A DNA stretch of 36,654 nucleotides from a virus. Lineage: Duplodnaviria > Heunggongvirae > Uroviricota > Caudoviricetes. Both the position numbers and the translations under genes were made by a program. The notes under the pieces are model-generated. The model saw only the letters and a list, made by a program, of their open reading frames with translations. It was not told where the DNA came from and searched no databases. How positions within the stretch are numbered: position 1 is the first letter of the stretch; each line of letters starts with the position of its first letter. The DNA lies in IMG/VR virus record IMGVR_UViG_2778261064_000029, one strand, 5' to 3'. Positions 1 through 36,654 of the stretch are shown piece after piece.

Positions 1-26
1 AACCTCGGTTTACAGGAAACGGTAAA
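1..26. repeat. gix-like crossover site of the G segment, partial (cut by window edge); perfect inverted repeat of 3081..3106
   Basis: Window 1..26 aacctcggtttacaggaaacggtaaa is the exact reverse complement of 3081..3106; contains TTCCTGTAAACCGAGGTT core that I recall from Gin/Hin-type sites. Confidence 0.8.
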
Positions 27-963
27 TCAGGCTTCTGGCGCATTGCAGAAAAACAAGAACGGTGAAGATATTCCGAATAAAGATAAATTCATACAAAACA
101 CAGGGGCTTGTCGTGCATTTAGCGGTCAGACTGATATCGATGGTTCACAAGGTGAATGGTCGACAGTTGCATTTATCTCGTGGCTGGAGAATAACGGAGC
201 TTTCCGACATCCATACTGGATGTGTAAAGGGTCATGGTCCTATGCCAGAAACAGGGTTATTACGGATACCGGTTGTGGAAATATCTGCCTTGCCGGAGCC
301 GTGATTGAGGTTATGGGAACCCGCGGCGCAATGACCATACGCGTTACCACGCCGAGCACATCAAGCGGTGGCGGAATTACTAACGCTCAATTCACTTATA
401 TTAATCATGGTGATGCTTATGCTCCTGGCTGGCGACGAGACTACAATACGAAAAACCAGCAGCCTGCATTTGCTTTAGGGCAAACAGGAAGCAGGGTTGC
501 AAATGATAAAGCTGTTGGCTGGAACTGGAATAGCGGCGTTTATGATGCAGATATCAGTGGCGCATCGACATTAATCCTCCACTTCAATATGAATACGGGG
601 AGCTGCCCTGCTGTACAGTTCCGCGTGAATTACAGGAACGGCGGTATTTTTTATCGTTCAGCGCGTGATGGTTATGGATTTGAGGCTGACTGGTCAGAGT
701 TTTACACCACGACCCGCAAACCCTCTGCGGGAGATGTTGGTGCATACACGCAGGCAGAATGTAACTCAAGGTTTATTACAGGTATTCGCCTTGGCGGTCT
801 GTCATCTGTTCAGACATGGAATGGTCCCGGCTGGTCTGACAGGTCAGGTTATGTCGTTACGGGTTCAGTTAACGGAAACCGTGATGAATTAATTGATACA
901 ACTCAGGCAAGGCCAATTCAGTATTGCATTAATGGAACGTGGTATAACGCGGGGAGTATTTAA
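1..963 (+). CDS. Alternative tail-fibre variable cassette (S'v-like), start-less; open frame runs from window position 1 (inside gix) to stop at 961..963; would be fused to the constant S 5' part after G inversion
   Basis: Frame 1 open from position 1 (NLGLQETVN... encoded through the gix repeat); C-terminus ...INGTWYNAGSI parallels S C-terminus ...[11 protein letters not shown]; ORF track 43..963. Confidence 0.8.
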   Translation, partial: NLGLQETVNQASGALQKNKNGEDIPNKDKFIQNTGACRAFSGQTDIDGSQGEWSTVAFISWLENNGAFRHPYWMCKGSWSYARNRVITDTGCGNICLAGAVIEVMGTRGAMTIRVTTPSTSSGGGITNAQFTYINHGDAYAPGWRRDYNTKNQQPAFALGQTGSRVANDKAVGWNWNSGVYDADISGASTLILHFNMNTGSCPAVQFRVNYRNGGIFYRSARDGYGFEADWSEFYTTTRKPSAGDVGAYTQAECNSRFITGIRLGGLSSVQTWNGPGWSDRSGYVVTGSVNGNRDELIDTTQARPIQYCINGTWYNAGSI

Positions 964-965
964 TT

Positions 966-1499
966 ATGATGCACTTAAAAAATATTACTGCTGGCACCCC
1001 TAAAACAAAAGAGCAATACCAGCTAACGAAACAATTTAACATCAAATGGCTTTATACAGAGGATGGGAAAAACTGGTATGAGGAACAAAAGAATTTCCAG
1101 CCAGACACTTTGAAAATGGTCTATGACCATAACGGCGTTATTATTTGTATTGAAAAGGATGTTTCAGCAATTAATCCGGAAGGCGCAAGCGTCGTTGAAT
1201 TACCTGATATTACAGCAAATCGCCGGGCTGATATTTCGGGTAAATGGATGTTCAAAGATGGCGTAGTGATAAAGCGAACTTATACCGAGGAGGAACAGAG
1301 GCAGCAGGCAGAGAATGAAAAGCAAAGCCTGTTGCAACTTGTCAGGGATAAAACCCAGCTATGGGACTCACAGCTACGGCTGGGCATCATTTCCAACGAG
1401 AATAAACAAAAATTAACCGAGTGGATGCTCTATGCGCAGAAGGTCGAATCCACAGACACCTCCAGCCTGCCAGTAACGTTTCCAGAACAACCAGAATGA
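966..1499 (+). CDS. Tail fibre assembly protein, alternative copy (U'-like)
   Basis: 177 aa; strongly similar to minus-strand 1528..2055 product (MMHLKNI..., [29 protein letters not shown]); ATG 2 nt after S'v stop. Confidence 0.85.
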   Translation: MMHLKNITAGTPKTKEQYQLTKQFNIKWLYTEDGKNWYEEQKNFQPDTLKMVYDHNGVIICIEKDVSAINPEGASVVELPDITANRRADISGKWMFKDGVVIKRTYTEEEQRQQAENEKQSLLQLVRDKTQLWDSQLRLGIISNENKQKLTEWMLYAQKVESTDTSSLPVTFPEQPE

Positions 1500-1502
1500 A
1501 AC

Positions 1503-1530
1503 AAGGCCCGCTATCGGGCCTTAATTTTTA
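1503..1530. terminator. Bidirectional hairpin between convergent U' and U genes
   Basis: aaggcccg-ctat-cgggcctt stem-loop followed by taattttta; lies between the two convergent stop codons. Confidence 0.5.
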
Positions 1531-2055
1531 TTCAGGCTTTTGTGGCCATTCAGGATTTGCCGTATCCACACGGCTGACCAGAACACTGTAGCGTTCCCAT
1601 GCTTCCAGTCGTGTGCGTTCCTCGTCTGTTGCCATATTCAGCCTGACAGCGCGTTCCAGCGGCTGGATGACTGATTCAGCTTCGGAAAGCAATGCGGCCT
1701 TTTGTGATTCGGCTTGTTGTTGCTGTTCGTCTGCCGTATAAATCCGTTTAACCACAGCTCCATCCTTAAACATCCACTTTCCTGAATCATCAGCGCGGCG
1801 GTTGGCTGTAATATCTGGAACCTCAACGACGCTAAAACCTTCAGGGTTAAGCGTGGAGGCATCTTTGGTGATGGCGACAATAATATTATTTTCATCGTAA
1901 ACAATCTTTATTGTGTCTGGTTGAAAGTTTTTCACTTCCTCATACCAGTTTTTTTCGTCCTCAGAGTAAAGCCAGATGACTCCGTGTTTCTTTGTTAACT
2001 CATACTGTTCCAGTGTTTTAGCGTTAACCGCTTTTATGTTCTTTAAGTGCATCAT
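1528..2055 (-). CDS. U: Tail fibre assembly protein (Mu U-like)
   Basis: 175 aa, paralog of 966..1499; immediately downstream of the tail fibre gene. Confidence 0.85.
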
Positions 2056-2056
2056 A

Positions 2057-3610
2057 TTAAACGCTCGCTACATTATACCAGGTGCCATTTATATACTTTT
2101 GAACGGGTCTGTAATAAACGCCCGCTATATTATCGGCAGAGTTGGACCCTGTATCCTGAACATTAATACCAGACAATACATGACCTGACGGGCACTGGAA
2201 ATTCCATGTTTGCCAGTTGTTCACACCATAATATTGCTGTGAACCAAGTCGAACATCGTGCACGCCGATTTGTCTGAGGTAAGATGACAACCATCCTCCC
2301 CATGCAGTACCATTAATGTCACCATTCGATGCCAAAGTCGCTCCACCGGCAATTACCGGACCTGGCGAAAAAAATGATTTGTCGTTCGGGTTAAACTGCC
2401 ATAAGGCTCCATTGCCGTTATCGCCACACACATGAATACATGGTACCGGGAATCCCTGCTGTTCAGTCAGCAAATAGCCAAAACTGACGGCTCCCGGATA
2501 CCCCTGTCCATTGCGAATGGACAAGCCCTTAACTATCGGCACGTAATGACCACCAGGAGAGGGATTCCAGGCAAACTGCGTCTGAACAAAAGGCGCAGTG
2601 GCATTATTCAACTGGTCTGCAAATGCGCCACTTCCATCAGGAATTATTCCCTGATGAATATATGCAACCCGCTTATAAAAATCAGCAGATGCGGGTTGAA
2701 GCCCAAATGCCAGTTGTCCATTTGAATAGAATAAAAGGACACCGTCGCCGCCCTGTTTAATACCAGTGTCGTTATCTCCGAGAGTAATGGAATTACCGCC
2801 CAGTGCGTTATCTGTACCAAGCGCCAGCCCACCATCAATTTTGGCCCCGTGGCTGACAGATATAGCACCTGTTCTCAGATTTATAGCGAATGGCCTTAAT
2901 GGGCCGATATCACCGTTTTCGCCTTGTCCTTCAGCCGTCGGAATGAAATGAAGAAAATCTTCTGAACGACGGAAAATAAGACCGAAGGCATCATTGAAAA
3001 TTCGCAGCGCATTCATCGTGCCAATTTTCAGTTCTCCGGTCATTTTATCGCCGGAACGCTGAACGGCGTTACCAGCCCTGTTTACCGTTTCCTGTAAACC
3101 GAGGTTTTGGATAAACAGCGGCTTATTGGGAATATCTGCTCCGTTCCGGTCTTTTGCCAGACGGGCATTAGCATTATCCATCGCAATTTTCACCGCTTTT
3201 GCGGTGGCTGCCAGCGTTTCACTGGGGCTGTCAGTGGCACTGGTTAGCTGAACGAGTCCTTTTTTGTTCAGGCTGGCATCATAGATATCCAGATTTTCAC
3301 GTGCTGTACGCTGTGCTGATGCCCCGGCAGTTTTAATTTCGCTGAGGTTATTTTTTATCAGCAGCGCGTTATTGCTCATAATGGCTTTAATGGACAGTGC
3401 AAGCTGGTTTAATTTTGTTTTATCCGGTTGAATACCGGCTTCTTCCAGCGTGTTTAATAACTCCGCCTGCACAATATTAAACCAGTCCATGCCGGGCCAT
3501 GTGATAACATTATTCCCGTTACCTTCTGAAAACCAGCGAACGATAGCACTACGCTGGGCGGATACGGGCGGCATGACGGTTACGCCGCTGTCGTTATCAA
3601 TATAAAACAT
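2057..3610 (-). CDS. S: Tail fibre protein (Mu S-like), constant part 3115..3610 fused to variable part 2057..3088 in the captured G orientation
   Basis: 517 aa; gix site lies inside the coding sequence at 3081..3114 (encoding ...[14 protein letters not shown]...); Gly/Asn-rich C-terminal receptor-binding region. Confidence 0.9.
3081..3114. repeat. gix-like crossover site inside the S gene (Sc/Sv junction)
   Basis: Inverted repeat partner of window 1..26; ttcctgtaaaccgaggttttggataa at 3089..3114. Confidence 0.8.
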
Positions 3611-4152
3611 TAGTTATCTCCGTCATGGTAAACAAATTTATAAATCTGATGCGCGGGTTTATATTTCTCCAGTAAACATTCCAGCGCACCCGATTCATAA
3701 ACACGTAACGGCGTCAGAACATTATCCAGCACCGTTGCGTTGCGATAATTTTTAATACCGTAAATATTGACCTGCGTAACCCACTGGCCTTCTGTGGAAT
3801 CCGTCAGCCTGACGGTAAAACCGTACTGCGCAGCCAGCCATTCATAAAAGCGCCGACTCAGATTGCCGGTCATACGCATTTTATTTGCGGCAGCCCGCTG
3901 GCGTTCTGACAGGGTGCCGTTTTCGCTGGTACAGTCCGGCAACCCCAGAAATGATTCCCACTCACCCAGATACCAGCGGGATGTGGACGGGAAACGCTCC
4001 CGCAGCATTTGCCGCGCATCATCCGCCGCAGTGGCAATCACGTCGCTGATGGCCTGCGCCAGCGCAGATAATTTGCTGTCGGGGCTTTTATTCCAGGCAA
4101 GCCCTGACGGCAGTAATTGCAGAAAGGCCGTCTGATAGGGTGTTACAGCCAT
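3610..4152 (-). CDS. Baseplate/tail protein (Mu gp48-like, P2 gpI-like position)
   Basis: 180 aa; synteny immediately upstream of tail fibre gene; overlaps neighbours by 1 and 10 nt. Confidence 0.75.
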   Translation of the reverse strand: MAVTPYQTAFLQLLPSGLAWNKSPDSKLSALAQAISDVIATAADDARQMLRERFPSTSRWYLGEWESFLGLPDCTSENGTLSERQRAAANKMRMTGNLSRRFYEWLAAQYGFTVRLTDSTEGQWVTQVNIYGIKNYRNATVLDNVLTPLRVYESGALECLLEKYKPAHQIYKFVYHDGDN

Positions 4153-11081: not shown

Positions 11082-11516
11082 TCATTCCGGCACCGCAGCC
11101 ACTCGCCCCCGTTCTTGTGTCAGCGATGCCGCCACAGCCATGTCGTGCATCTCTGTAGCCAGCGACAGACGCTGGAAGTCATCAACAGACAGCTTGCGCA
11201 TCAGCGCCAGCGATAACGGGCCTTTGATGCAACCCACGCTGGCAATCTGTCGGCGCAGCATTTCCAGTCCCATCCGGGACGGGGAACTGACCAGCACCGG
11301 GCCTTCCTTGCTCATTACCAGCTTTTCAGCAGCCGCCTGGGCATCAATCAGATCGCCTGCGGTCAGTTCACGCAGTGTGACGTCATACTGCATTTCAGTC
11401 TCGTCACCGGTGCCGAACGGCAGGCCGTCTTTCAGTTTCAGACCACCGGACTGAAGCTCAGCCACAATGCTGCCACGCAGTTCCTGTGCTTCAGGACTTA
11501 AATTCATTTCGTCCAT
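11082..11516 (-). CDS. Tail assembly protein (Mu gp41-like), possible tape-measure chaperone
   Basis: 144 aa between tube gene and tape measure gene. Confidence 0.65.
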   Translation of the reverse strand: MDEMNLSPEAQELRGSIVAELQSGGLKLKDGLPFGTGDETEMQYDVTLRELTAGDLIDAQAAAEKLVMSKEGPVLVSSPSRMGLEMLRRQIASVGCIKGPLSLALMRKLSVDDFQRLSLATEMHDMAVAASLTQERGRVAAVPE

Positions 11517-23843: not shown

Positions 23844-24089
23844 ATGTTCTGTCTCATCTGCCAGCCGCGCGGCACGATTTGCGGCACGGATAGCGGAAAA
23901 TACCTGCATCGTCTGTTCCTGACCGTGTAACAACCATTCAGCCGTGTTGCGGGCCTGTTGCTCCGTCTGTAATTCACGGCGCAGCGTCTGGTTATCGTGG
24001 CGGGTGCTGTCCAGCCTGTGCCACAACACCCCGGACAGAACGGCGGCAAACACGGCTGCCAGCAGTAAACTTTTACTGGCGAAGGTCAT
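23703..24089 (-). CDS. Inner-membrane spanin candidate (Rz-like)
   Basis: 128 aa; N-terminal TM helix (LLLAAVFAAVLSGVLW) followed by charged helical periplasmic domain; directly after endolysin. Confidence 0.7.
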   Translation of the reverse strand: MTFASKSLLLAAVFAAVLSGVLWHRLDSTRHDNQTLRRELQTEQQARNTAEWLLHGQEQTMQVFSAIRAANRAARLADETEHHDAKQKITTAITGDNCSTRPVPAVAADRLRELEKRTRAIGGDPARN

Positions 24090-24591
24090 CCGCCCCCCTG
24101 ATATTCCAGATAGCCATTTCCACTTCGCGACGGTTCATCAGTCCTTTCCATTTATGGCCTGCGGCAAACACCCAGCGGGCCATCTGGTCACGCGCTCCGG
24201 CGTAATCACCGGCATTGAGTTTTTTCAGCAGCGTTGATTTACTGAATGCGGTAACACCGGTGTTGAAAATAAACGTTGCCAGCGCCGTTTTCTGATATGG
24301 CGTCAGCGGCACCCTGACAAGACGATCGATTGCCGCATAAACCGGTTTTAAATCACTGTCGAGGAGAGCCATACACTCCGCATGGCTGTAACGGCGCATT
24401 TCGATATCCGGCCCGGTATGCCCCACACAGACCGAAAGCACACCGCCAATATCGCGGTAAGGCATATAAGCGATATTTTCCAGGTGGATCAGAGACTGAC
24501 GGGTCATTTCCTGATAACCACCCACACCGCCACCGGCAATCGTTACAGCCAGCAGTGTGGCTTTCAGTTTTTTTGGTATCCCCGCCATCAT
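24073..24591 (-). CDS. lys: Endolysin, lysozyme-like with N-terminal signal-anchor-release type hydrophobic segment (Mu Lys-like)
   Basis: 172 aa; N-terminus MMAGIPKKLKATLLAVTIAGGGVGGYQE then lysozyme-like core; first gene after C. Confidence 0.85.
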   Translation of the reverse strand: MMAGIPKKLKATLLAVTIAGGGVGGYQEMTRQSLIHLENIAYMPYRDIGGVLSVCVGHTGPDIEMRRYSHAECMALLDSDLKPVYAAIDRLVRVPLTPYQKTALATFIFNTGVTAFSKSTLLKKLNAGDYAGARDQMARWVFAAGHKWKGLMNRREVEMAIWNIRGADDLRQ

Positions 24592-25237: not shown

Positions 25238-25448
25238 GGTATTTTTCTCTGTAACGCCGGCAATGGTGGATAATTTCTGGCATATCAACGGACTGCCAGC
25301 CTTTCATGTAATAACTTCCGTGGGTGCCATCGTGCCCTGTGTAATCCATTGGCTTTGGTGGTGGGCCTCCGGCCTCCCGATGTAATACCTCCTGTCGTAA
25401 ACGTTCACGCCTGCCGAACTGAAAGGACGCATCCCACCCTTTACCCAT
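25218..25448 (-). CDS. Hypothetical protein, 76 aa (ATG 25448 preferred over track start 25502)
   Basis: ATG begins 3 nt after the stop of the upstream GH108-like gene (coupling). Confidence 0.5.
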   Translation of the reverse strand: MGKGWDASFQFGRRERLRQEVLHREAGGPPPKPMDYTGHDGTHGSYYMKGWQSVDMPEIIHHCRRYREKYHVQKIQ

Positions 25449-26001
25449 GCAGAACCTCCCGACAGGCGCTGGCGAGCAGATCCAGACGGTTAAACCAGCC
25501 ATTCAGATATTTCCCCTGCGAGGCACTGGATTTGATAATCCCTGCGTAATAGCGGGAACGACGCAGGAAGCACTGCAACAGCAGCCAGTCAGTATCGGCA
25601 CGCAGAACGGCTGCGCGTGTGTTTTTACCGACGATGCCATCATCATCAACACCTGCTGCCGCCTGGAGGATCTGAATCGCGCGTTTAACACCGTGCTGAA
25701 CGGCAGCATCAAAAACGAATAAGGAAACGCCATCAGGCCATTCGTTACACTTTGCCGCCAGCCAGTAATCACGCCAGTAGATCTGCGCCGCCTGCTCGCG
25801 GGTTAAATCCTTAATGCGGGTATCAGGTTTTCCGTCACCGTTAACATCGGTTTTGCCATCAATAACGCCGTCGCGACGGTCAGAAATACCGTATTTCGTT
25901 TCGCCGCCACGGTCGGCAGGATCATTAACATAGCCACCTTCAACATCAGGGCGTATAACGAAATTCAGCGAATGAAGGAATGCAGGGGAAAACTCAGGCA
26001 T
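25441..26001 (-). CDS. Peptidoglycan hydrolase candidate, GH108-type N-terminal motif plus peptidoglycan-binding-like C-terminal region
   Basis: EGGYVNDPADRGGETKYGIS motif near the N-terminus, then IYWRDYW; AGGAGG RBS 6 nt upstream; first gene after the early terminator. Confidence 0.75.
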   Translation of the reverse strand: MPEFSPAFLHSLNFVIRPDVEGGYVNDPADRGGETKYGISDRRDGVIDGKTDVNGDGKPDTRIKDLTREQAAQIYWRDYWLAAKCNEWPDGVSLFVFDAAVQHGVKRAIQILQAAAGVDDDGIVGKNTRAAVLRADTDWLLLQCFLRRSRYYAGIIKSSASQGKYLNGWFNRLDLLASACREVLHG

Positions 26002-32238: not shown

Positions 32239-34245
32239 TTAAATGACTTTTTTACGTCTGTTCTGTTCCAGAATATCCAGTGAATGATTCAGATATTCAT
32301 CACGATCAGTTTCATATTCATCATCGGCTTCCTGGTATTTCACCTGCACCGTGTTACCGGAAGGCCGGAAAATACCAACAACCCTTGATTCTGGTGCTGC
32401 TGGTTCGGCTATCTGCGGCAGCAGTTCAGCAACTTCCAGCGCGTCCATTTGTTTCTGCGCCTTAATGGCTGCTTTAGTTGCAGATTTCAGTTGTTTCTGG
32501 CGGCGGCGATATTCACGGCCTGCCGCTGCATCATTAAATGCAACAGGTGCCAGACATTCCGCTTCACAGATAAACCGACCGTCCAGGGTGTAACAATAAA
32601 CCGTGCTGTGTAGCTGCTGCGGATCAAACCTGACCACAACTTTTTTCACGCCGGCATTCATTAATGCCATGTTGTAATAAACGTTTTTTGCGCCTTTAAG
32701 GGAGCCGCCAACTTTAAGCGTAAACTCGCCTTTGCGTGAAACGTTCACCGCCTCGGCAGGCAGTAACAGCATCCGTTTTTGTTCTTCGGTTGGCTTACGC
32801 ACAATCGTTCTGGCGTATTCACGCTCGAAAACATCATCAAACGAGAGTTTGCCCCCGCACATTTCTGTTTCACGGCCTGTTCTGGCATTGAACATCGCCA
32901 CACCTTCGGCAAGGGTTTTCAGAAACAGCTCTGCATCAACAGCGCGGTCGCCATAGTTATCAGGTTTTGCCTGCGGATTTGGCCCCGTATATGCGCCAGC
33001 CAGTGCCGGATGCTTATCAACGTATTCCTCAAGCCCACCAACACCGAAAGCACGTTCAACAGGTTTTGCCTGGCCCCAGCCTTTACCGGCAACAACGCTT
33101 GTCCAGTGCATTTTCGCGCCCATCAGTAAAAACAGTCCCTTTGGATCGTCCTCTTTTACCTTAAAGCGGTAACGATTGGGCGCGCCCCCCGTCAGCCATT
33201 TATTCGCTGCACCACGGGTGTTATCAATGGTGATGTGAAAATCCTCCGGGATGCCGTAGCGTGTCACCACATCCATAAACGAGAGGCGAATTGAGTCGAT
33301 GTTCTCGCTTACATCGCAACGCCAGCCCAGAATTTTTCGGGTTTTCACATCCTGCCAGAACCATGTTTTCGGGCGGATCACATCACCGTTAAACCAGCGT
33401 ACAAAGACGTTATGCAGATAACCGTCGCCGTTGATCCACTGCATGGCGTCCAGGTGTTCCACAGTTCGCTGCTGTGCCGGTATCAGATGCATCAGTGCAT
33501 GTTCACCTTCACGACAGGCAACAACCATTGCCTCGTCCAGTTGCTGAATCCGGCGAAAGGCCGTGGCACGGGAGGGAATACTCCAGCCATGCTCGCGGGC
33601 TGCCAGTTCCAGACGCTCATAACATTTGCGGAAGGCGGGCTTTTCCGGTCGCAGATAATCTGCAATCAGAAACTGCCAGGCATCCTCGTCAAATTCACTT
33701 TTGTGAACGTTGCGACGGGATGCACCACGTCCATCAACAAGCGCAGCCGCCCAGTCAGGCTTCGCAAACTTCTGTACCTGGTAATACTTGTCCCGCAAAG
33801 TGGATGCGCTGACCTGGTAATGCCCTGCAACGGTCGCAAAAGCCGTTTTTGTTGAAATCCCCTGGTTCAGCATTTCGTCTGCGGCCTGAACCGCAGGCAA
33901 CCATTTTTCAGCAAGTCTGCGCTGGGAATCGCTGGCGTTATCCCATTTGCTCCACAGTGCCTCACGATCATAATCATGGGCTTCCAGCGTGGGGCGGGCG
34001 ATTTCAAAACGGCCCTGGCTTGTTTCGATCTCTCCTTGTCTAAGCAACAACGCAGCTTGCGTTTCCTTTGGTAAAGATGAGATATGAAACTCATAGGCTA
34101 CTCCTCTTACCCCGTGTATCTGTCGAAACACCCACTGTTCTAACCTTGCTTTACGAGAGATCGCGCTAGAGGATTTTGGAAGACCTATCAGCCCTTCTAA
34201 TTTCTTTGCAGAAAACCAATCATTACATTGTGGTTGCATTTTCAA
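32239..34245 (-). CDS. A: DDE transposase MuA
   Basis: 668 aa; N-terminal domain paralogous to c repressor N-terminus; ATGA overlap with ner. Confidence 0.95.
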
Positions 34246-34460
34246 TACCTCGAAGGCCAGATGTCTCGTGGCTCAACTCCCAATGCATCGGCAATGATTC
34301 TTTCCCCCCGAGGGTAAGGTTTATCCAAGGCATTTTTTACCGTAGAGATAGAGAGACCGTTCTCACGACCAAGAGCTGCTAGGCTTTTTCCTCTTTTGCG
34401 CAGATCAGCAACAATGTCGTATCTACTTTTGTCTTCACATTTACTTTTCTTTATCGCCAT
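34242..34460 (-). CDS. ner: Ner-like DNA-binding early regulator (ATG 34460; track start 34469 is TTG)
   Basis: 72 aa from [72 protein letters not shown]; resembles Ner C-terminal ...IIANAL...IWPSRY. Confidence 0.85.
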
Positions 34461-34660
34461 AAAATGCAATCCTCACAAGCTACGCCATCAGCTACGCCGC
34501 AAGGTAGCTGATAAGGTATGCAGCAATGCTAGTGTGAATACATTGTCAATGCAATAGTGTATTCAAATGTTTTGTTTGAAATTCATCTATCTCGATGATT
34601 TTAAAGTGAATATATTTTTCATTTCTTTGAATACATCGTGTATTTAAAGCGAGGTTTGTG
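34461..34660. promoter_or_regulatory. Divergent early/repressor promoter-operator region (Pe leftward for ner-A-B, Pc rightward for c), expected to overlap the transposition enhancer
   Basis: 200-bp AT-rich interval between divergent ner and c; AGCTAC repeats at 34478..34510 and TGAATACA / GTGTATTC repeats at 34534..34567 and 34626..34645. Confidence 0.7.
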
Positions 34661-35176
34661 ATGACACAAGAATGGTTTTCAGCTAAAGAGCTACAAGGGG
34701 TTGCTGGTCTTCCGTCTTCAGCAAGTAGTATTAGCCGCAAAGCAACTAATGAGGGATGGAAAAAGAGACAGATCAAAGGAGTAAAGGGTGTTGCTTATGA
34801 ATACCATATCAGCTCATTACCTGATGCCACTCAGGCAGAATTAGGAGGGGCGCAGTTATTAGATAACGATAAGTCAGCTTATAAGTTAGCTTCTGTGTTA
34901 ATGGCTTTGGTTGCAGAGTTAGAACCAGAGGAAATCCAGAGGGCATTAAAGCTACTTAGTAAAGGTGGACTTAGTGCACTAATGCCAAGTATCTTTGATC
35001 AGACTCAAATCCAATCTCTGCACGGCGTATCGCGTGAGTGCATACAACTCGCCCAAATGCTAGAAACTTTACCAGCAGAAGAGCGCAAAGAGATTTTGTC
35101 AGAGCATGGTATTCATGAACAGGAAGGTCTTGTAGCTCCTTCGCAAGAACCACAAGATGTAAAAAAAGCCGTATAA
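34661..35176 (+). CDS. c: Repressor c (immunity repressor)
   Basis: 171 aa from ATG 34661 (GAGG 5 nt upstream); N-terminal domain paralogous to MuA N-terminus; C-terminus ...[27 protein letters not shown]. Confidence 0.85.
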
Positions 35177-35339: not shown

Positions 35340-35514
35340 TGTTTTTCGTATTTTCAATGAAACAAAAGCAATTTTTTACTATCTTTCGCGTTTCATTGAT
35401 TAACGACTAAAATTTGCGCTACAGGCTTGCAAGCCCCACCAAATCTAATCCCATCAGATCCCGAATAATCCAATGTCCTCCCGGTTTTTTTCGTACTTCA
35501 AGTGAATCAATACA
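35340..35514 (-). repeat. Left-end attachment region with three MuA end-binding repeat units (L1-L3-like) and terminal 5'-TG
   Basis: Repeats around 35340..35368, 35386..35414 and 35487..35510 share the YGTTTCAYT...CGAAA pattern on the minus strand; last prophage base 35514. Confidence 0.85.
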
Positions 35515-35749
35515 ATAAAATATTCCATCTATCGTTTGTTAAAAGCGTAGATAACCACTTATTTAACAACTTGAAAATAAGGTATTTTACCTGGGTTGTT
35601 ACAAAAGGATTGCATTGCGTAAACGCTTTTTATTTACAAAAAAATGGGGAAGTGTTACAGCGATTGCGAAAAGTCTGAAGCAATTGAATTAAGATAATAT
35701 AGAAAATCAGATACAGCAAAAATGGCAGATTGATGAGGTGAAGATAAAT

Positions 35750-35823
35750 TGGAGCGGGCGAAGGGAATCGAACCCTCGTATAGAGCTTGGGAAGCTCTCG
35801 TTCTACCATTGAACTACGCCCGC
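35750..35823 (-). tRNA. glyU: tRNA-Gly (anticodon CCC)
   Basis: Reverse complement gives GCGGGCGTAGTTCAATGGTAGAACGAGAGCTTCCCAAGCTCTATACGAGGGTTCGATTCCCTTCGCCCGCTCCA, 74 nt, 7-bp acceptor stem, CCA end. Confidence 0.95.
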
Positions 35824-35840
35824 TTCGAGATGCGTAAGGC

Positions 35841-35868
35841 ATTATAAACCTTACGCTCTCCTTAGCAA
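35841..35868 (-). promoter_or_regulatory. Candidate sigma70 promoter of the tRNA-Gly gene
   Basis: Minus strand TTGCTA (-35), 16-nt spacer, TATAAT (-10), GC-rich discriminator; about 15 nt upstream of mature tRNA 5' end. Confidence 0.5.
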
Positions 35869-35901
35869 GTGCCGCGCTGCTGACTGCTGATTAATTCGCC
35901 A

Positions 35902-36654
35902 TCAGCATTTTGGCTTGCTGCCCTGAGGCGGCAAGTAACGTAGCGGATCAATTGCCGTTGCACGGTAACGAATCTGGAAATGCAGGCGAACCGATGCCGC
36001 ATCAGTGCTCCCCATAGTGGCGATTTTTTGCCCAGCCTTCACGCTTTGCCCATTATTTACCAGCATCGTGTCATTATGGGCGTAAGCCGTAATGTAATCT
36101 TCACTGTGTTTAATCATGATGAGATTACCGTAGCCACGCAGCTGGTTGCCCACATACACCACCTTTCCTGCACCCGCGGCGTAAATAGGTGTACCCCGTG
36201 GAGCTGAGATATCAATCCCTTTATTGCCGCCATCAGCTGTCGAATACGGCATGATAACTTTCCCTGTCGTTGGCCATAACCAACAACGTTGCCCTACTGG
36301 CGGCCAGGAAGATTTTGGTACTGCTGATGACGGTGTAACCGATGCGGTTTTGGTCGTTGATTTGGCGGTTGATTTACGTGTACTGCTACTTTTCGCCCCA
36401 CCCAGTTTTAGTTTCTGACCAACTTCAATGGTGTAAGGGGGGGAAATGCCGTTCAGCCGCGCCAGCTCTTTTACGCTGGTTCCCGTGGTGCGCGAAATAC
36501 GATATAGCGTATCCCCCCGTTTCACGGTGTAAACGGAGCCGGAATACGTTCCTGTATCGGATGATTTGCTACCCGAACAGCCCGCCAAAAGCAGTCCAAC
36601 CGATAACAACATCACGATACCCAGAGATTTTTTATTCAGGCGTCCCGCACTCAA
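35902..36654 (-). CDS. ygeR: Host lipoprotein with LysM domain and M23 peptidase domain (YgeR/NlpD-like); reaches the window edge, so the 5' end may be incomplete (track start is TTG)
   Basis: Lipobox LLLAGCSG; LysM YTVKRGDTLYRISRTTGTSVKELARLNGI; M23-like C-terminal half. Confidence 0.8.
   Translation of the reverse strand: MSAGRLNKKSLGIVMLLSVGLLLAGCSGSKSSDTGTYSGSVYTVKRGDTLYRISRTTGTSVKELARLNGISPPYTIEVGQKLKLGGAKSSSTRKSTAKSTTKTASVTPSSAVPKSSWPPVGQRCWLWPTTGKVIMPYSTADGGNKGIDISAPRGTPIYAAGAGKVVYVGNQLRGYGNLIMIKHSEDYITAYAHNDTMLVNNGQSVKAGQKIATMGSTDAASVRLHFQIRYRATAIDPLRYLPPQGSKPKC

Follow-up and report, generated by a model that had tools for sequence, protein, structure and literature searches.

A Mu-type G segment with a hybrid tail-fibre tip in a prophage attributed to Escherichia coli

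The G segment of phage Mu, which flips and thereby exchanges the tail-fibre tip and hence the host range, belongs to the founding examples of programmed DNA inversion. The C segment of P1 and P7 (Cin/cix) and the Pin and Hin systems follow the same principle and are homologous switches, and the Min system of plasmid p15B is a shufflon-like, multi-site example. In the P2 record that we examined, H and G make up one cassette only, without a neighbour in the opposite orientation, and P2 is not known to have an invertible segment. The Gin/gix/Fis mechanism has been described (PMC3575834), as have the dependence of Mu on Fis, with a recombinational enhancer in the 5' part of the invertase gene (PMC3575834, PMC10434027), and the switch between S/U and S'/U' (PMC10434027). 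Yersinia phage vB_YpM_3 (Muvirus) is likewise Mu-like and has an invertible segment with an adjacent invertase (PMC10434027), but it differs from the locus described here in fibre tip and chaperone.

We analysed a window of 36,654 nt (IMG/VR record IMGVR_UViG_2778261064_000029), which is a nearly complete Mu-like prophage in reverse reading direction. Collinearity with Mu runs from position 35514, where the Mu left-end sequence is located, down to position 1, with 94-98% identity over most of the length and 98.4% identity over 22 kb in the late genes. The genes, transposase A/B among them, follow the order of Mu, and the ends are of the Mu type with a 5-bp target duplication, as is characteristic of a Muvirus; the duplication, TTTAT, flanks the left end in the window and the right end in a sibling genome. 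In contrast to Mu, the immunity region is of another type. Base 1 of the window falls within the gin-proximal crossover site. We put the probability that the whole region described below represents the G segment in a Mu-like (Muvirus) E. coli prophage at about 0.93. Apart from its hybrid fibre tip, the switch is an ordinary, textbook one, and the system is already known. The gene order, the convergent cassettes, and the 26-bp gix on the side of the constant fibre part (Sc) are the same as in the Mu G segment, with the gix identical, but the segment is 38 bp longer from centre to centre (3,096 versus 3,058 bp) and the fibre has 517 aa rather than 504 aa. Positions 37-2101, which hold Sv', U', and U, are 92-94% identical to the C-segment cassettes of P1, P7, and D6. 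However, P1 and P7 have another backbone, that of a P1-like plasmid prophage, and another constant part, whereas the backbone of the window is that of Mu.

The segment is bordered by a perfect 26-bp inverted repeat, in which positions 1-26 (the left, gin-proximal arm) are the exact reverse complement of 3081-3106, as the sequence-only reading had reported. About 1.5e-7 such perfect 26-nt pairs would be expected by chance in 36.6 kb. The match breaks from base 27, and a weaker match reaches 48 nt at 79%. The right, Sc-proximal arm spans 3081-3114 and contains a 26-bp gix at 3089-3114, with the central GA at 3101-3102. This is the only exact occurrence in the window of the Mu gix (TTCCTGTAAACCGAGGTTTTGGATAA), and 100 shuffles gave no match with three or fewer mismatches. 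The left arm retains the inner half-site and the central TC (5-6) but just 4 nt of the outer half-site, the rest being lost at the end of the window and contig. The prediction that the repeat runs past the window edge was borne out by two further matching bases in the source contig and by the full 34-nt arm in a sibling genome, where the two copies differ by one mismatch (TTAGATAA versus TTGGATAA). The complete gin-proximal site in sibling L003 is TTATCTAAAACCTCGGTTTACAGGAA, which differs from the Mu gix by one base in the outer half-site. The segment is thus bounded by two inverted gix-type sites of 26 bp, each with two 12-bp half-sites around a central dinucleotide, of which the left one is cut by the edge.

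By analogy with the gix of Mu, strand exchange should take place at the central dinucleotides (window positions 5-6 and 3101-3102) and not at the inner ends of the repeats. The sequence-only reading had correctly placed an invertible segment between the repeats and the constant part outside it, but its boundaries require adjustment, since exchange at these dinucleotides would move DNA from about 7 to 3100 instead of 27 to 3080 and would extend the constant part down to about 3103 instead of 3115. The inversion products are not affected by this correction because the arms are identical.

Two convergent cassettes lie between the sites, Sv' and U' on the plus strand and Sv and U on the minus strand. 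Sv' (1-963, plus strand; 320 codons, stop at 961-963) is the silent, start-less variable C-terminal part of fibre S'. Its frame is open from base 1 and in frame with Sc across the repeat, and its residues 1-320 match residues 169-488 of the Mu S' structure 8ju3 (E=1e-199). The 306-aa open reading frame at 43-963 with a TTG start is a gene-caller artefact; for annotation, a "phage tail protein" called from this TTG should be regarded as a silent fragment and not as a gene. The chaperone of the silent cassette, U' (966-1499, plus strand; 177 aa), has a Caudo_TAP domain (Pfam, E=1e-36) and is 97.7% identical to Mu U'. The chaperone of the expressed cassette, U (1528-2055, minus strand; 175 aa), has the same domain (E=1e-37) and shares 91.4% identity with each of Mu U and P2 G and 77% with U of vB_YpM_3. 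U and U' are 55% identical to each other. The cassettes are thus convergent, and in each of them a separate fibre assembly chaperone comes after the variable part, in agreement with what had been read from the open reading frames. Between them is a GC-rich hairpin (1502-1523) that has an intrinsic-terminator score on both strands in a consensus scan, with an 8-9-bp stem that includes six GC pairs and with a T-run on either strand, and it may act as a terminator.

The currently assembled fibre gene, S (2057-3610, minus strand), consists of Sc and Sv and is a contiguous open reading frame of 517 aa with a Phage_fiber_2 repeat. Only Sv is joined to Sc, which upholds the proposal that this minus-strand fusion is the expressed fibre. 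Sc (3103-3610, minus strand) is the constant N-terminal part outside the segment, is common to S and S', and has a frame continuous with both cassettes; the region at 3060-3700 is 99% identical to Mu at the nucleotide level. A sigma-70 promoter scan of 1-3800 gave 5 matches compared to 7.3 in shuffles and thus no promoter evidence inside the segment, which agrees with expression driven from outside.

When the inversion was simulated, Sc was joined in frame to the cassette at 1-963, giving an open S' fusion of 488 aa. The constant 5' part is therefore in frame with alternative 3' parts in both orientations. This is the outcome that the sequence-only reading had foreseen for the start-less cassette, except that the constant part reaches down to about 3103 and not 3115. 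The simulated S' shares 92.6% identity with Mu S' and 98.2% with a fibre of E. coli 2020C08-115 that is annotated, full-length, and contiguously encoded. Eleven complete E. coli genomes carry the simulated Sc-Sv' junction as contiguous sequence. Both orientations also occur at the same locus in close relatives. Two assemblies of E. coli W (NC_017635.1 and NC_017664.1) have one prophage in common, in which a 100% identical G segment of 3,084 bp lies in opposite orientations with collinear flanks, and the G segments of elppa5 and 2020C08-115 are likewise in opposite orientations.

The gin gene lies outside the window. A recombinase gene had been predicted just upstream, and in the complete chromosome AP025754.1, which has 1 mismatch to the window in 9,610 nt, gin lies upstream at a distance of 63 nt from window base 1. 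Its Gin, a 197-aa protein with a Resolvase and an HTH_7 domain, shares 99% identity with Mu Gin, and gin, com, and mom adjoin the segment in this chromosome. In AP025754.1, a small serine recombinase thus adjoins the segment from outside. Over the first 200 nt of the sibling gin, the stretch that holds the enhancer in Mu, 5 positions differ from Mu, which is a measure of conservation only. An 84-nt exact query that began 7 nt before the end of the outer gix half-site and ran across the gix-gin spacer into the start of gin had no matches in one-genome-per-species contigs.

The arrangement suggests a mechanism of the Mu type, in which a stretch of about 3.1 kb lies between a pair of inverted gix sites and each convergent cassette carries a fibre tip and its chaperone. 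Late transcription and translation would begin outside the segment, in Sc, and then enter whichever cassette faces Sc. In the captured state, Sv and U face Sc, which corresponds to the G(+) arrangement of Mu. Gin, predicted to be encoded just past the window edge, would pair both gix sites, cut both at the central dinucleotide, and rotate the strands by 180 degrees, with assistance from host Fis at an enhancer that lies within gin. Religation would join Sv' and U' to Sc, and progeny phage with a different fibre tip would adsorb to different hosts. The cleavage position and the dependence on Fis and the enhancer are those expected from Mu, and the present copy probably flips as the Mu segment does.

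The locus might instead have kept the architecture of a G segment in a copy that no longer inverts, with gin lost or inactive or with the variant outer half-site unrecognised, so that only the Sv fibre is made. The position of gin beyond the window and the single change from Mu in the gin-proximal site would fit such a loss, as would the shared orientation of the known carriers of the exact window fibre (n = 2, AP025754.1 and a draft contig). The exact simulated S' was also absent from about 15 billion catalogued proteins in an exact look-up, and there is therefore no direct record of the present element in the other orientation. However, the sibling gin is intact, and the silent cassette is fully open with 92.6-98% identity to expressed versions. 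The variant half-site in TTAGATAA is also present in elppa5 and 2020C08-115 and is compatible with flipping, because the segments of these two are oppositely oriented. Two assemblies in one state say little, since inversion is reported to be infrequent (PMC10434027). We consider the loss of inversion improbable and retain a Mu-type switch as the preferred reading.

The same preference holds against two explanations to which we give next to no weight. A misjoin or collapsed repeat in the short-read draft could have created the repeat and the contig end, which coincides exactly with the last base of the perfect repeat, but the arrangement is common to Mu, D108, and many complete genomes, and such an artefact is rejected because the complete chromosome AP025754.1 has the same structure, again with 1 mismatch in 9,610 nt. 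A multi-site, shufflon-like system, in which crossover sites and fibre variants would each number more than two, is suggested by a degenerate second copy of the crossover-region peptide motif NGxDIPNK..FIQN in Sv', at about 49-110. However, the best internal gix-like match has 10 mismatches in 26 positions, and only one gix match with three or fewer mismatches is present in the whole window; this system is rejected because the segment contains no additional gix-like site.

The variable part of the expressed fibre, Sv (2057-3100, minus strand), is a hybrid module and is not the Sv of Mu, with which it has no nucleotide match across about 2120-3059. Positions 2343-3106 are 95% identical at the nucleotide level to vB_YpM_3 and many E. 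coli prophages, whereas positions 2057-2263 are 98% identical to P2 H. At the protein level, S is 95.9% identical to Mu S over residues 1-194 and 98.5% identical to P2 H over its last 68 residues (450-517); over its full length it shares 85% identity with S of vB_YpM_3. Judged from these similarities, the expressed Sv combines a body of the vB_YpM_3 type with a tip of the P2 H type. A megablast search with 1-3700 gave no complete E. coli genome record that covered more than 82%, which is explained by the hybrid Sv and not by an unknown element. The hybrid is an example of the joint movement of fibre tips and their chaperones among phages of the Mu, P1, and P2 types, and this exchange of tip and chaperone bears on host-range prediction or engineering.

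We suggest, tentatively and as somewhat less probable than its opposite, that this natural hybrid fibre together with a Mu/P2-type chaperone gives a G(+) receptor specificity unlike that of Mu or vB_YpM_3, and also that the contig break reflects a culture containing both orientations. Switches of this kind tend to interrupt draft assemblies. The end sequence expected of the source-assembly contig that adjoins gin, com, and mom is TTATCTAAAACC.

The beginning of the window carries an invertible G segment, as the sequence-only reading had proposed, and this interpretation is supported by the crossover sites, an open fusion frame, a gin recombinase gene in a near-identical chromosome, and flipped segments in relatives. 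The convergent cassettes bracketed by a repeat were found as described. The reverse complement of 3081-3106 is identical to bases 1-26 (AACCTCGGTTTACAGGAAACGGTAAA), and the ORF list gave an open frame without an upstream start (1-963, plus strand), two chaperone genes (966-1499, plus, and 1528-2055, minus), and a 517-aa fiber gene (2057-3610, minus); the domain search assigned Caudo_TAP to both chaperones and a Phage_fiber_2 repeat to the fiber. In a sequence of this length, chance alone would give about 1.5e-7 perfect inverted pairs of 26 nt. The identity stops at base 27, with a weak extension to 48 nt at 79%. In a comparison with annotated phages, the fiber (S and S') and chaperone (U and U') genes of Mu and D108 matched this region, and the C segments of P1, P7, and D6 matched the cassettes. 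The system is already known as the Mu G segment with Gin, and apart from its hybrid variable fiber part (Sv) the window's copy is ordinary.

The 26-bp gix crossover site, TTCCTGTAAACCGAGGTTTTGGATAA, lies at 3089-3114 within the right arm and was the sole match in the window at ≤3 mismatches (0 in 100 shuffles); phage Mu carries it twice, inverted, at the annotated G-segment boundaries. The segment described from the sequence alone stands, with its boundaries slightly corrected: exchange is expected at the central dinucleotides, 5-6 (left) and 3101-3102 (right), which puts the end of the constant fiber part (Sc) near 3103 and the start of the window just four bases outside the left crossover point. 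The left gix is complete in AP025754.1, where it reads TTATCTAAAACCTCGGTTTACAGGAA and differs from that of Mu by 1 base in the outer half-site. A multi-site shufflon was ruled out, as no extra crossover sites were found within the segment and the best internal match has 10/26 mismatches; the G segment is a two-state switch. The silent variable part, Sv', holds at 49-110 a second, degenerate copy of the Sc peptide motif from 3107-3154, just before the crossover site (KNKNGEDIPNKDKFIQNTG). This copy is visible as an 81% inverted repeat (49-80 and 3123-3154) and forms no usable gix site.

The expressed S frame has a minus-strand codon starting at 3106, the base paired with plus-strand base 1. Inversion had been predicted to join Sc to cassette 1-963, and the simulated product (3610 down to 3107 followed by 1-963) is indeed an in-frame, open 488-aa protein. 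Over its entire length it shares 98.2% identity with an annotated fiber of E. coli 2020C08-115, in which Sc and Sv' are contiguous, and it is 92.6% identical to S' of both Mu and E. coli W. Among solved structures, Mu S' (8ju3) aligns with the silent cassette over the cassette's entire length (E=1e-199), and Mu S (5yvq) aligns with residues 1-197 of the window's S. A separate 306-aa "phage tail protein" starting with the TTG at 43 (43-963, plus strand) is annotated by gene callers, for example, in AP025754.1 and elppa5; rather than a gene in its own right, it is the silent C-terminal cassette, whose frame is open from base 1.

The window corresponds to contig PTRP01000020.1 (assembly GCA_002965585.1) from contig base 3, and so the draft contig itself stops inside the crossover site. 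Bases 1-28 of the contig start AAAACCTCGG..., exactly at the last base common to both gix copies, and one base farther out the flanks of this 28-nt perfect repeat diverge, with T next to the gin-side copy and C next to the Sc-side copy. The assembler halted at the end of the repeat; a short k-mer or a culture of mixed orientation would each yield the same break. The complete chromosome AP025754.1 encodes an identical 517-aa fiber and differs from the window by 1 base over 9,610 comparable bases. The gin gene expected just upstream is present there, as a 197-aa gene whose start lies 63 nt past the point corresponding to window base 1. The encoded protein combines a Resolvase domain with an HTH_7 domain and shares 99% identity with Mu Gin. 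Beyond gin follow com, mom, the Mu right end, and host DNA.

In Mu, each gix is occupied by a dimer of Gin, the dimers on the two sites join as a tetramer, and Gin is activated by Fis; both sites are cut with Gin covalently attached, half of the complex turns 180 degrees, and the ends are rejoined, so that inversion of the 3-kb segment alters the tail fiber proteins made (PMC3575834). Host range is set by expression of S with U or of S' with U' (PMC10434027). Every cis component able to lie within the window is present, and the trans component, gin, is present in AP025754.1; the first 200 nt of this gene, compared only as a conservation check on the enhancer inside it, show 5 differences from Mu. 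A promoter scan found no excess of sigma-70-like promoters inside the segment, which fits expression from outside via Sc. U' and U converge on a GC-rich hairpin (1502-1523) with an intrinsic-terminator score on either strand; it would end the late transcript whichever way the segment lies. No feature of this kind is annotated at the corresponding position of the Mu record.

Both orientations occur among related prophages. Eleven complete E. coli genomes contain the 800-nt simulated Sc-Sv' junction as one uninterrupted stretch, and many others show the window-like arrangement. The clearest case of a flip is the pair of E. coli W assemblies NC_017635.1 and NC_017664.1, in which the 3,084 bp between the gix outer ends are 100% identical but reverse-complemented, while the gin and gp48 coordinates are identical and the flanks are collinear at 99.9 to 100%. 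As a result, the annotated fiber length is 488 aa for one assembly but 504 aa for the other. A flip also separates the closely related prophages of elppa5 and 2020C08-115, whose flanks are 99.9% identical. Both have the variant half-site TTAGATAA, indicating that this variant is compatible with inversion, and both keep it next to gin, which is where it should stay if strands are exchanged at the center of the site. Both known copies of the window's own element have the same orientation, and the exact simulated S' is absent from the protein catalog; flipping of this copy is thus inferred. Because inversion is reportedly infrequent (PMC10434027), this lack of the other orientation is weak evidence.

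The expressed Sv is not that of Mu, as 2120-3059 has no nucleotide match there. The fiber of the Muvirus Yersinia phage vB_YpM_3 is 85% identical to the window's S over the full length of the protein, and the Sv body module (2343-3106) is 95% identical at the nucleotide level to vB_YpM_3 and many E. coli prophages. In the final 207 nt of S, identity to P2 gene H is 98% (98.5% over the last 68 residues), and about 80 nt between body and tip (2264-2342) gave no megablast match. The window's U shares 91.4% identity with Mu U and likewise with P2 G, against only 77% with the chaperone of vB_YpM_3. Judged from these similarities, the expressed variable part (2057-3106, minus strand) is a hybrid, with a chaperone of the Mu/P2 type rather than the vB_YpM_3 type; tip and chaperone were apparently passed on as a pair and attached to another fiber body. 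This is familiar fiber gene mosaicism and involves no new principle. The body module is common in E. coli. In the ST131 strain JJ1887 (NZ_CP014316.1, 1487220-1489600), a prophage near trpA has a similar convergent cassette pair, in which this module is the silent copy. A truncated recombinase gene adjoins the pair, and the switch there is probably frozen in one state.

The whole window is collinear with Mu, reversed. The late genes (3060-25240, 22 kb) are 98.4% identical to Mu, and the early region is 94 to 96% identical over most of its length. The Mu left-end sequence TGTATTGATTCACTTGAAGTACG ends at 35514, and 35515-36654 is E. coli chromosome (99 to 100% identity) with actS, tRNA-Gly(ccc), and a glycoside hydrolase 15 gene. 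The insertion adjoins the tRNA gene (35750-35823) and splits or abuts the hydrolase gene. TTTAT lies just outside both the left end (35514-35519) and the right end (11298-11303 of the AP025754.1 locus). Mu transposition generates a 5-bp target duplication, and the TTTAT pair is this duplication. The repressor/ner region (34050-35100) matches Escherichia phage PhiR68_1 at 97.5% identity and lacks any nucleotide match to Mu, indicating an immunity type other than that of Mu; the 172-aa repressor (34658-35176, plus strand) has a Mu DNA-binding domain. Between mor and C, the place of the small genes 18-20 in Mu is taken in the window by a gene for a 186-aa protein (25441-26001, minus strand) that has Glyco_hydro_108 and PG_binding_3 domains. 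The Mu-type endolysin position (24073-24591) is filled as well, and the 186-aa protein may be a second cell wall hydrolase.
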